Source: Escherichia coli (GTDB lineage Bacteria; Pseudomonadota; Gammaproteobacteria; Enterobacterales; Enterobacteriaceae). From it: a stretch of 62,297 nucleotides of DNA. The stretch lies in assembly GCF_024298765.1 (NCBI RefSeq), contig NZ_CP101213.1. The stretch is one strand, 5' to 3'. Position numbers: made by a program. Positions 15,001 to 18,000 of this stretch are shown here, piece after piece (the stretch's first letter is position 1; each line of letters opens with the position of its first letter).

Positions 15001-18000
15001 TAACACTTGAGAAACCAACACACAAAGAGATAGAAAAGAGACTTAATACCTGGTTAAATAAAACAAGCCAAGAGATTAAGCATATTTTTAACCAGGCGGA
15101 GAAAACAAGGGAACTTTACAAGACATTAAGCCCTTCACAACAAATTGATTTCCTGCAAGAGAGGATAAAAGAATATGACTCAAGAGAAAAACTTAACGAA
15201 AGAAATTCTCAGCAAACGTCAGGACGAGCGGGAGGTTACAAGTCGTGTCCTAAAAAGTTTGCCAGAATCCGTCAATCTGAAGCAACAGTCGGATTGTCAC
15301 GTATGCCCCAACGCGGTATGGTTTACGGAATCAATGGATTCACAAGACCCGACTCTGTCAGTGTATTGTCAGATATTTCGCAGCGTGATCTGGCAGAGCA
15401 ATTATCGCAAAGAGAACATCCTGGTCAGGATGTGCGACGGGATTATGATAGACAATTCACAGAGTCAGGAATAAAAAGTCTTGAACGCTCTTCTTTTTTG
15501 TGTGAAACGATGTTTCAGACTCTGAATGAGGCGGCAGAGAAAAACGAAATTGCAACGATGGCAGAAATTCGCAGAAATATTGATCCTGTCAGGTTTCTGT
15601 CTTCTGCCGCCGAGCGTTTTAATATTATTCCAGCGCAGCATAAAATCAGAACAGCAAAGGACGGTTCCCCCCGGTTTTCTGTGGGGAATCGTAATATGAA
15701 CGCATCTGATTTTCTGACAAAGCATATTAATCTTGCCTGGAAAGATGCGAAATCCTTTCTGCTTGAAGTTTATTCACAGCAGTTAGAAAACACGCCATAT
15801 ACGCGCTATCCAACCTACAGACGCCTTACGCATCATGAAGCCCGTGAGCGTCTTAACTCACTGAATTTATCGGAAAAAACATTACGAAATACTATCAGGT
15901 TTGAGCGTGGCAAGCTGTATAATGATCTGCGAGAGATGAGACGCGAGTTGAAGTTAATACCACGTGAACAGCGTGATATTGCCGTGGGTGTGATTGTTTA
16001 CAAAAAACTAACCACACTTGAGCGTCTTTCTGAACTCGACACAGAGGGGCGACACATAATTCGTCAATATCATGCTGACTGGCATAAGGATAAAGATGAA
16101 ATGAAAGCCCTTGAACGTCTCAAAAGCTATCTCAACTTCGATGAAATCAACGCCATTTCTGCTGACGAACCCGAACTTTCGCTTCAGAAAGCGGTGGATT
16201 CCCAGCGCCGCTTAGAAGAGGCGAAAAAGGTTAACTCCAAACTAAAAGATCTTGTGATGGATAAGCAGGATTCCAGGATTGTTTATCGCGATCAGGAATC
16301 GGAAAAGCCTGTCTTTACCGACAAAGGGAACTTTGTCGTTGCGGGTAAAAATCCTTCAAAAGAAGAGATCGGAATAATGCTTGAGTATTCCAGGGAAAAG
16401 TTTGGTGGTGTACTCAAACTTACCGGCTCTGAAGATTTCAAAAAAATGTGCGCTGAAGTTGCCGCAGAGCAGGACATGAAGATTATTTTACGCCCGGAGC
16501 AGTATCAACAGATGATGCTGGAATTAAAAGCAGAACTTCAGGGTAATAAGTTTGAGCAGGTGGAAACACAGGAAAATAGCCAGGAGTCCGAATCCAGAAT
16601 AGAGAAAGGTGATGCATTGAAGGAACAGGCCACCGAACAGGAACAGGCTACAGAGCAGGCACAGGCTACAGAGCAGGCACAGGCTACAGAACAGGCACAG
16701 GCTACAGAGCAGGCACAGGCTACAGAGCAGGAACAGGCCACCGAACAGGAACAGGTCACCGAACAGGAACAGGCTACCGAACAGGAACAGGCTACCGAAC
16801 AGGCACAGGCCACAGAGCAGGCACAGGCCACAGAGCAAGCACAGGTCGCAGCGCAGGCCACATCTTCATATGATCCTGGTGTTATTACCAGGGCAAACAC
16901 CCTGGATTCACAGATGCTTAGTAAAGGCACAAATGGTGAATTTGGCTATTTGAAATCTCTGGATAGCGATGAAAATGAGATTTGGGAAGTGCTGGGACAT
17001 GTACCTGGAGACAGCGATGATATTTTTGACGTTGCCAGTTTTGATAATGAAAACGACGCAAAAGAATTTTGCAAAATTGTGAATGAGTTAGGTATTGACA
17101 GAACACAGGCTCTGATTCAGGAGCAGCTTACTACTCAACACGATCAGGCTACTGCGCAGGTGCATAATAAACAGGAAATTTATTGTATAAACTTTAGTCG
17201 CTTCCATGATTTGAATGAAGGTATCGTCTTTCATTCTAAAGATGCGGCTATTCAGTGTTATGAGGAAAGCAAATCTTCTGCAATAGAAAAATATGAAAGC
17301 AATTATTTAAATGGTGATGGTTTTGATACTGTTGTGCTTATGTCTAAAACTGTCTCAACCGATGAATTATCCTCTTATCCAGAGGGGGCATTAGTAACGT
17401 TTGATAGGCCATTTGAAATAATTGCCAATTCATATGAAGAATACCGTACTCCAGTGTATGCGGTTTCTTTTTCGAAGGATGAGTTTAGTGAAGATATTAA
17501 GACTTTTGAGTCATTGCACGACGCATCTGAATATAAAAATAAGATGCTTCAGGAGCACGGGCTTAACCAGGATGATATCTTAATCACACCTGTAACAAGA
17601 GAAGAAATCGCCTTTAAAGGAATTAAGGACGCTGTTAATGACGCTAATATGGCAGTGATGGAACAGGCGGGGGATTCGTCCAGAGAATCACCAGAAGAGA
17701 TACTCGCCAGTATTTCAGCTAACGAGCATATGATCTCCGGGCTTGAAAACTTCCTGGTTAAAGACCGTTCTCAGTTCAGTTCCTGCAATGGGGATATCGT
17801 TGTGGAGGCGGAAATTACCAGGGGGGAAGGTGGTCTTTATCACCTTGCGGTCGCTGGTAAGCATGGCTTAGAGCGTGGTGATGCAGTTGCCAGAGTGGAT
17901 GTTACGGAGCAGCAATTTGCCGCGATCACTGGAAAAACACCTTCTGAAGTTTTAACGGGGGACCAAACATCGGCTCGTGTTCCGGTAATTACAGGTATCC

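Follow-up and report, generated by a model that had tools for sequence, protein, structure and literature searches.

An 18-bp coding minisatellite of variable copy number in the IncI2 relaxase gene nikB probably encodes a length-tolerant spacer between LPD7 and a mosaic C-terminal zone

A Gln-rich peptide repeat encoded in frame within an unstructured part of a conjugative DNA-transfer protein has been described for TraD, the coupling protein of F-like plasmids, whose QQP-repeat region, in the C-terminal extension of the protein, is 5 residues long in F and 23 residues long in R1 (PMC3245843). We analyze here an 18-bp tandem array in nikB, the relaxase gene of an mcr-1-carrying IncI2 plasmid, as it occurs in a 62,297-nucleotide stretch of Escherichia coli DNA (contig NZ_CP101213.1, assembly GCF_024298765.1; this whole stretch is hereafter the window, and all positions refer to it). 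The array probably encodes a slippage-prone, length-tolerant acidic spacer of Gln, Ala, Glu and Thr (with some Val) in NikB, a MOBP6-type relaxase, and at the level of DNA it is a coding minisatellite. The QQP-repeat region of TraD is its closest analogue in the conjugation machinery, although TraD is a type IV coupling protein and not a relaxase, and its unit is QQP as opposed to ATEQAQ here. The TraD region also adjoins a known TraM interaction domain, whereas the modules downstream of the nikB array have no known partner, and the range of lengths is wider in nikB (2 to 18 units of six residues).

Other described systems share single aspects of this locus. In-frame tandem units of the 18-bp class, polymorphic in number and order and used as a typing marker, make up the R-domain of Staphylococcus lugdunensis fbl; repeats of this kind lie in surface adhesins under host selection, whereas the nikB array lies in a cytoplasmic or translocated enzyme of plasmid DNA processing. 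We found no typing scheme that uses the nikB array. The MOBH TraI of the gonococcal genetic island is likewise a relaxase with a disordered middle region, but it belongs to the MOBH/TraI_2 type rather than to MOBP6 with an LPD7 domain, and its description mentions neither a tandem DNA repeat nor a polymorphism in copy number. ER/K single α-helix spacers resemble the predicted structure of the array peptide, as both would form a long isolated interdomain helix from a Glu-rich periodic sequence. ER/K helices require alternating acidic and basic residues, and this defining feature is missing from the nikB array, which lacks Lys and Arg. In kind, the array is an ordinary feature, a coding minisatellite combined with a low-complexity interdomain linker; we found no description of it in the open-access literature, where mentions of tandem repeats in IncI2 plasmids concern other things.

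The nikB gene (14196 to 18509, plus strand) is a 4314-bp open reading frame (ORF) translated into 1437 residues. Tandem Repeats Finder (TRF) places the array at 16621 to 16845 with a period of 18, 12.5 copies, 91% matches, 0% indels and a score of 275, compared with 91 for the runner-up array across the window. Within 16629 to 16844, identity at a lag of 18 bp reaches 180/198 (0.909; binomial P ~1e-76), against a mean of 0.284 and a maximum of 0.369 in windows of the same length elsewhere in the nikB ORF. This plus-strand core consists of 12 clean in-frame units (residues 812 to 883) of the ATEQ[A/E]Q type, with one VTEQEQ, and is bordered by degenerate flanks at 16617 to 16628 and 16845 to 16862. 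Position 16617 is a codon start in the nikB frame, DALKEQ (16611 to 16628) precedes the core and a degenerate terminal unit, VAAQAT (16845 to 16862, plus strand), follows it, a 12-bp part of which is present or absent between lineages. The first-pass annotation had reported about 13 in-frame units at 16617 to 16850 in the middle of the relaxase, which is correct to within one degenerate unit; the repeat occupies residues 808 to 889 of 1437. With each letter standing for a distinct 18-mer, the clean units run a b b c b d a e f g h i; a period-54 superunit suggested by a further TRF row was rejected, as 54 is a multiple of 18 and this order has no three-unit periodicity.

The units differ from one another by 16 synonymous and 6 nonsynonymous codon differences, the latter limited to codon 1 (Ala/Val) and codon 5 (Glu/Ala). 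The guanine-cytosine (GC) content of the array is 59.7%, versus 42.6% for the whole window, and only 8 of its 216 bases are T. The encoded peptide (Q25 A20 E17 T12 V2) consists of Gln, Ala, Glu or Thr at 74 of 76 positions, has an entropy of ~2 bits and a net charge of -0.22 per residue, contains no Lys or Arg in the 72-residue core and falls on the disordered side of the charge-hydropathy (Uversky) boundary. The array qualifies as a coding minisatellite, since its units lie head to tail, have a length divisible by 3 and are read in one frame of a genuine gene. The exact 1437-residue protein was not found by look-up in a 15-billion-protein collection.

To follow the array across related plasmids, we used 901 bp centered on it as query and examined 60 records evenly spaced down the PLSDB ranking of 522, together with 60 sampled from the 297 of 5426 complete RefSeq E. 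coli genomes that match, all of them on plasmids; the sample counts are not corrected for phylogeny. The PLSDB sample contains 34 records identical to the window, 25 of other length (-162 to +60 bp) and one that lacks the downstream module, and the RefSeq sample contains 29 with the reference sequence and 30 of other length (-156 to +96 bp). Some 40 to 50% of the sampled IncI2 plasmids thus have a segment longer or shorter than that of the window. Each of the 55 length differences in the samples is divisible by 6 bp, and the reading frame is never broken; those not divisible by 18 arise because some arrays end in ...ATEQAQ AT instead of ...ATEQAQ VAAQAT. With an 18-bp unit and the frame kept in 55 of 55 sampled length variants, the locus does not behave as a phase-variable contingency locus, and nikB is annotated as intact across the array in nearly all records that carry a nikB annotation. 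In one plasmid, pQ503 (L023, NZ_CP127260.1), nikB is annotated as a frameshifted pseudogene, yet its 13-unit array is in frame, which places the frameshift elsewhere in the gene.

Arrays read from 22 fetched variant loci, the reference IncI2 plasmid R721 (used as NC_002525) and the window fall into 23 distinct forms that range from 2 units (pBCE049-3) to 18 units (pP377-2), with 13 units in R721. The proposal that the repeat is prone to expansion and contraction is borne out by this range, and the comparison of repeat number across related plasmids that had been suggested as a check gives anything but an invariant number. Several unit types are amplified in particular lineages, with VAEQAQ present five times in p34514-1 (L013), ATEQEQ six to ten times in the MRSN346595, ETEC1706 and P377 plasmids (ten times in L022) and an ATEQTQ unit type in KV7, a pattern that shows independent expansions. 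Two further records, MN232208 (+57 bp) and MN232184 (+43 bp), were rejected as nikB variants; their arrays are those of the window and their extra length stems from contig joins. In both (L004, NZ_MN232208.1; L005, NZ_MN232184.1) an N within nikB is flanked by a duplicated overlap of 57 or 43 bp, at the equivalents of window positions ~15038 to 15094 and ~14484 to 14526, and one record loses its nikB annotation.

Five plasmids are identical to the window over 280 bp on the upstream side and 250 bp on the downstream side of the array, yet they carry 13, 11, 7, 6 and 4 units. With its terminal unit included, the window allele is a b b c b d a e f g h i j. One b is gained in pPK411 (13 units; a b b b c b d a e f g h i j) and one a is lost in pMCR-H9 (11 units; a b b c b d e f g h i j), whereas larger losses are found in pS304_2 (7 units; a b b c b b i j, five units short and with a hybrid unit at the junction), pSH292-1 (6 units; a k f g h i j, six units short and with k as the hybrid unit) and pV80 (4 units; a g h i j, eight units short). 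By the order of units, each of the five is explained by a single in-register duplication or deletion of the window allele. In the two samples, array length has changed in about 5 of the 68 plasmids whose sampled flanks are identical, versus 2 plasmids with a single substitution in the 901 bp; this comparison, crude and uncorrected for phylogeny, indicates that the array changes at several times the rate of unique sequence of the same length, but is not wildly unstable. Plasmids with 2 to 4 units are typed conjugative, and one of them carries mcr-1.

Within the protein, the array is found directly after the LPD7 domain (16236 to 16550, plus strand; residues 681 to 785 in the AlphaFold model, with a Pfam PF18821 match of 2.4e-14 at residues 691 to 775), the last fold of a conserved N-terminal core of ~785 residues that it closes, and the array marks the left edge of a mosaic C-terminal zone. 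Among 120 homologues listed, with 99% to 37% identity, the alignment covers the first 54 to 69% of the query and extends mostly to about residue 810. An acidic, nonrepetitive pre-linker (ELQGNKFEQVETQENSQESESRIEKGDALKEQ; 16551 to 16628, plus strand), also on the disordered side of the charge-hydropathy boundary, leads from LPD7 into the array. The repeat had been proposed to join the relaxase catalytic domain to the C-terminal region; it follows LPD7 instead.

An AlphaFold2 model of residues 681 to 1437 (757 residues, built with 36 sequences) has a mean predicted local distance difference test score (pLDDT) of 67.6 and a predicted template modeling score (pTM) of 0.29. In this model, LPD7 (residues 681 to 785) is predicted with a pLDDT of 85 to 91, residues 786 to 828, which include the pre-linker, with a pLDDT of <50, and residues 819 to 887 as one continuous helix of ~69 residues with a pLDDT of 47 to 75 that peaks in mid-helix. 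Residues 885 to 916 again have a pLDDT of <50 and are followed by a string of small α/β modules (pLDDT 60 to 92) and a C-terminal helical tail (pLDDT 79 to 87). A flexible linker, as proposed, would suit the composition of the segment but not the single long helix that AlphaFold2 predicts with low-to-moderate confidence; either way, coil or weak helix, the array peptide is a nonglobular spacer.

Two features of a low-complexity linker are present: the segment has a hydrophilic, charged bias, and it lies between folded domains, with its position and composition, rather than its sequence or length, kept in homologues. Where the motif that ends LPD7 could be located, homologues of 37 to 58% identity carry 40 to 140 hydrophilic residues rich in Gln, Glu, Ala, Thr, Pro and Lys after it. 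Directly after LPD7, an Aeromonas protein has ATPEQ four times, P0102 has [AG]QT[GE]PEQ five times, P0038 has AEQVSQPE three times and P0096 has an 11-residue repeat of the ASAENEATE type. The post-LPD7 repeats of such distant members appear, from their sequences, to have arisen independently at the same site, and independent repeats at one position would reflect selection for the composition of a spacer and a tendency to mutational slippage, not selection for the ATEQAQ sequence. Proteins in which unrelated repeats follow LPD7 comprise P0058, P0102, P0038, P0096 and P0059.

The sequence beyond the array is organized as a series of modules, at least one of which is bracketed by repeat-like DNA. 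Module M1 (SSYDPG...ELGIDRTQALIQEQLTTQH; 16863 to 17141, plus strand) is optional and consists of a disordered lead-in and a small β-β-β-α-α unit, with its strands and helices at residues 916 to 989 (pLDDT 50 to 70). It is missing in L020, P0002, P0003 and P0006 and present in the others, and the same module type occurs in relaxases of Phytobacter and Buttiauxella. A degenerate repeat unit, GATCAGGCTACTGCGCAG (DQATAQ; 17142 to 17159, plus strand), forms the right edge of M1 and is followed by CATAATAAACAG. In plasmids without M1, the array joins directly to CATAATAAACAG (the HNKQEIYC sequence). Repeat-like sequence thus brackets M1, which fits linker DNA as a recombination joint. The rest of the variable cassette zone (17160 to 18251, plus strand) contains module starts at EIYCINFS (17175), PVYAVSFS (17451), ESPEEILAS (17685) and YVYFSTHEG (18054), and the protein ends in a conserved helical tail (RHEIEKAQGRD...EDGKILEAID...EGLKFER...LLNH..TRE.AED; 18252 to 18506, plus strand). 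The tail consensus, VPRHE.E.AQGRD..EQDG.IL.AID.YQ.KF..EGL.F.R..., is a majority consensus of 36 homologues, down to ~20% identity.

At least three C-terminal architectures are found among IncI2 plasmids. Type A, that of the window, has the array followed by M1, M2, M3, M4, M5 and the tail; type B (L015, L016, L018, L019) has the array and M1 followed directly by M4 (ESPEEILAS...); and type C (pBCE049-3, P0002, P0003, P0006) has 2 to 3 units followed directly by M2, without M1. We infer that R721 is of type B from the presence of M1 and a nikB product of only 1272 residues, and P0157 is an additional deletion variant. The presence or absence of M1 (residues 890 to 981) or of M2-M3 (residues ~994 to 1163) yields proteins of 1218 to 1437 residues, with breakpoints in Gln-rich linkers (L015, L016, L018-L021; P0001-P0006, P0157). 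A module of ~105 residues (ATAQPEARQTVEEVKALLADNEMRRMMM...DVINAH.ATLEP) occurs singly or as two or three tandem copies in P0021, P0023, P0025 and P0032, relaxases of ~57% identity from Enterobacterales plasmids, at the equivalent of the cassette zone. This variation in module copies is the same expansion behavior at the scale of a domain.

The C-terminal modules resemble no described family in the searches made. The C-terminal 552 residues, searched against Pfam, PHROGs, NCBIfam and PDB sequences, returned only low-complexity noise (the DnaX tau linker, a LIM-domain protein), and a Foldseek search of the 757-residue model as a whole, not module by module, reached no better than E = 1.1 in the PDB, a value without meaning for a multidomain model with a pTM of 0.29. 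The C-terminal modules (16908 to 18506, residues 905 to 1437) have an extremely narrow distribution, as an exhaustive HMMER search against 1.84 billion cluster representatives gave only 28 matches at E≤1e-3, mostly relaxase fragments, and a homologue search with the C-terminal half likewise recovered mostly partial fragments of the same protein. Short matches of ~33% identity were found in P0180 (202 residues), P0181 (149 residues) and P0187 (107 residues), which might, on sequence grounds, be stand-alone versions of single modules. The long C-terminal region, first described as of unknown function, is not undifferentiated and comprises small folded modules and a conserved tail.

The reading that we consider probable, a slippage-prone and length-tolerant spacer, would work as follows. 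At the DNA level, changes in length would come from in-register slipped-strand mispairing of the 91%-identical 18-bp direct repeats or from unequal exchange between them, with occasions for slippage during vegetative replication and possibly further ones during conjugative rolling-circle transfer and complementary-strand synthesis. The peptide, as random coil or marginal helix, would keep the DNA-processing core apart from the C-terminal modules, so that each could fold, and reach its partners, on its own. As relaxases leave the cell bound to the DNA strand being transferred (PMC5512222), a structureless spacer would let the parts of such a protein fold, unfold and find partners separately; core and modules may accordingly unfold and refold one apart from the other during export through the type IV secretion system. 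Length would be near neutral above a short minimum of perhaps 2 to 3 units plus the nonrepetitive pre-linker of ~25 residues, and repeat-like linker DNA may double as a breakpoint for the gain and loss of modules such as M1. Several points weigh against this reading or limit it. About 57% of the PLSDB matches share the exact window allele, which reflects clonal spread of the epidemic lineage, but also means that the array is only moderately unstable; some length variants seen in single records could be assembly errors; and the counts come from samples of 60 that are uncorrected for phylogeny. The terms spacer and near-neutral length, and the slippage mechanism, RecA-independent or not, are what we infer, and the continuous helix of ~69 residues predicted by AlphaFold2 leaves room for a semirigid rod.

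None of the rival explanations, namely a rigid ruler, an acidic decoy, a DNA element or an assembly artifact, is favored by the data. A semirigid helical rod acting as a molecular ruler, with ~0.9 nm per unit if helical and a length adaptively tuned to place the C-terminal modules with respect to the relaxosome or coupling protein, so that variants are selected, is unlikely. Ala, Glu and Gln are strong helix formers, the helix predicted for residues 819 to 887 reaches a pLDDT of 75 in its middle, and long arrays persist in old and new plasmids alike (R721 has 13 units, the epidemic lineage 12 and pP377-2 18). Yet the pLDDT is only 47 to 75, units without Lys or Arg allow no i/i+4 salt bridges and leave 17 uncompensated Glu that would destabilize an isolated helix, lengths from 2 to 18 units show no preferred value outside the clonal lineage, and homologues carry Pro-rich, clearly nonhelical linkers at the same position. 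An acidic repeat that is active in the recipient, as a polyanionic mimic of DNA or of a phosphate backbone or a decoy for defense or nucleic acid-binding proteins, is a conjecture to which we give very little credence. The strong net negative charge of the segment would suit it, as would the entry of relaxases into the recipient with the DNA and the presence of LPD domains in "polyvalent" proteins of conjugative elements, thought to act soon after entry (PMC5512222). Searches of Pfam, PHROGs and NCBIfam (PADLOC not included) returned noise and no antirestriction or defense family, however, and plasmids with only 2 to 4 units circulate. One to two acidic residues per six is also modest in comparison with known DNA mimics.

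A role primarily at the level of DNA, in which iterons, a recombination site or a regulatory element would lie within a coding region by chance, is highly improbable, even though the base composition of the array is sharply distinct, with high GC and almost no T, and repeat-like sequence stands at a module breakpoint. Variation among units is concentrated at third codon positions, the sampled length variants without exception keep the frame and homologues conserve amino acid composition, not DNA sequence. Between 12000 and 22000, no Rfam match was found at E≤1 other than two chance-level matches away from the array, the array folded as single-stranded DNA gains no stability over shuffled sequences (z = +1.2), and promoter- or terminator-like sites show no excess at the array. 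These null results, together with third-position variation and strict preservation of the frame, make a purely DNA-level function unlikely. It is also very unlikely that the copy-number variation as a whole is an assembly artifact of repeats collapsed or expanded in the records. The array does defeat short-read assemblers, as hundreds of "relaxase, partial" entries stop or start there, and MN232208 and MN232184 hold obvious joins elsewhere in nikB. The variants differ by whole units with clean hybrid junctions, however, and identical variant spans turn up repeatedly in records that are independent of one another and differ in country and host (at least 8 sampled records share the 793-bp span and at least 3 distinct records the 774-bp span); lineage-specific units (TTEQAQ, VAEQAQ, ATEQTQ) cannot come from collapse, and a typical paired-read insert, like any long read, is longer than the 216-bp array. 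A broader proposal, which we regard as a long shot, is that the zone from LPD7 to the tail of MOBP6 relaxases serves as a cassette bay for small modules injected into the recipient with the pilot relaxase, with the repeat-encoded Gln/Glu-rich linkers as recombination joints for module shuffling between plasmids and as length-tunable tethers or acidic decoys that affect establishment in new hosts. By the description of polyvalent proteins (Iyer et al. 2017), LPD7 and a conjugative context are both present, while the C-terminal modules match no known effector family. If the cassette-bay proposal were true, array copy number would have a bearing on the host range, or on the success of transfer, of IncI2 plasmids with mcr-1.

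In practical terms, the array is of modest value for plasmid subtyping and for quality control of assemblies or annotations, and sequence collections bear its trace. Protein clusters named "relaxase, partial" of 807 to 809 residues end exactly at ...IEKGDAL(KE) (P0007 with 865 members, P0008 with 158 and P0009 with 17), and dozens of C-terminal partial sequences start within the repeat (TEQAQATEQ...) or at the first Met downstream (P0121-P0165). Short-read assemblies evidently break at this site (16611 to 16628) and split nikB in two, and such a break point can mislead relaxase-based plasmid typing or calls of gene presence. IncI2 plasmids are a main vehicle of mcr-1, and the nikB segment is present in 297 of the 5426 complete RefSeq E. 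coli genomes. In the epidemic lineage, the sampled flanks have almost no substitutions, yet several array lengths occur, so copy number and unit order could subtype these plasmids more finely than single-nucleotide polymorphisms; such subtyping needs long reads or careful assembly. The array also marks the border between the conserved core and the mosaic C-terminal half in a relaxase family with almost no experimental study.

The claim that the repeat generates spurious antisense ORFs is confirmed. Two overlapping ORFs on the minus strand, at 16524 to 16838 (104 residues) and 16538 to 16930 (130 residues), encode low-complexity peptides of the LFLFG/CSCSVA type without a Pfam family at E≤1. 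Two antisense frames are free of stop codons because only 8 of the 216 array bases are T, which explains both ORFs as composition artifacts.

The nikB gene matches ~60-kb relatives in E. coli, Salmonella, Shigella and Klebsiella, and several hundred plasmids of ~60 kb have 100% DNA identity to the nikB ORF; identical genes are annotated as "LPD7 domain-containing protein," "relaxase" or "nikB." In a plasmid collection, 514 of 523 records that match nikB are typed conjugative, and the fetched relatives are all typed IncI2, MOBP and MPF_T (MOB-suite/PLSDB). IncI2 relaxases have been assigned to the subfamily MOBP6 (PMC3394729). In line with this type, a ribbon-helix-helix relaxosome accessory gene, nikA/mobC (13858 to 14199, plus strand; Pfam NikA-like 2.9e-11, MobC 9.3e-07), adjoins nikB and overlaps its start; identical plasmids annotate it as "MobC" or "nikA." The Pfam Relaxase family PF03432 matches NikB only weakly at residues 53 to 142 (17 bits, under the 24.6-bit cut-off), a His motif, KPHIHIVIP, lies at residues 122 to 130, and many homologues of 40 to 57% identity carry a precomputed PF03432 match. 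Tyr5 in MIVRYGGG is kept in all homologues and is a candidate catalytic Tyr for nicking at the origin of transfer (oriT).

Downstream, mcr-1 (18730 to 20355; 541 residues, EptA_B_N and Sulfatase) starts ~220 bp past the nikB stop codon and is followed by pap2 (20403 to 21200; 265 residues), and no ISApl1-sized ORF lies between nikB and mcr-1. Plasmids with mcr-1 directly downstream of nikB have been described in many papers, and the position of the mcr-1/pap2 cassette agrees with a published hot spot beside a palindrome (PMC8868234). Upstream, the intergenic segment between a divergent ORF (13089 to 13490, minus strand) and nikA contains arrays of TGTGGGT/GTTTTGTGGGTT-type direct repeats at 13561 to 13695 (TRF periods 7 and 12), presumably the oriT/partition-protein binding region; the upstream region of R721 carries stbB-like genes. 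Other TRF arrays in the window are a perfect (TCATAT)×5.2 at 42025 to 42055 and a 33-bp unit present 1.9 times at 59663 to 59725.

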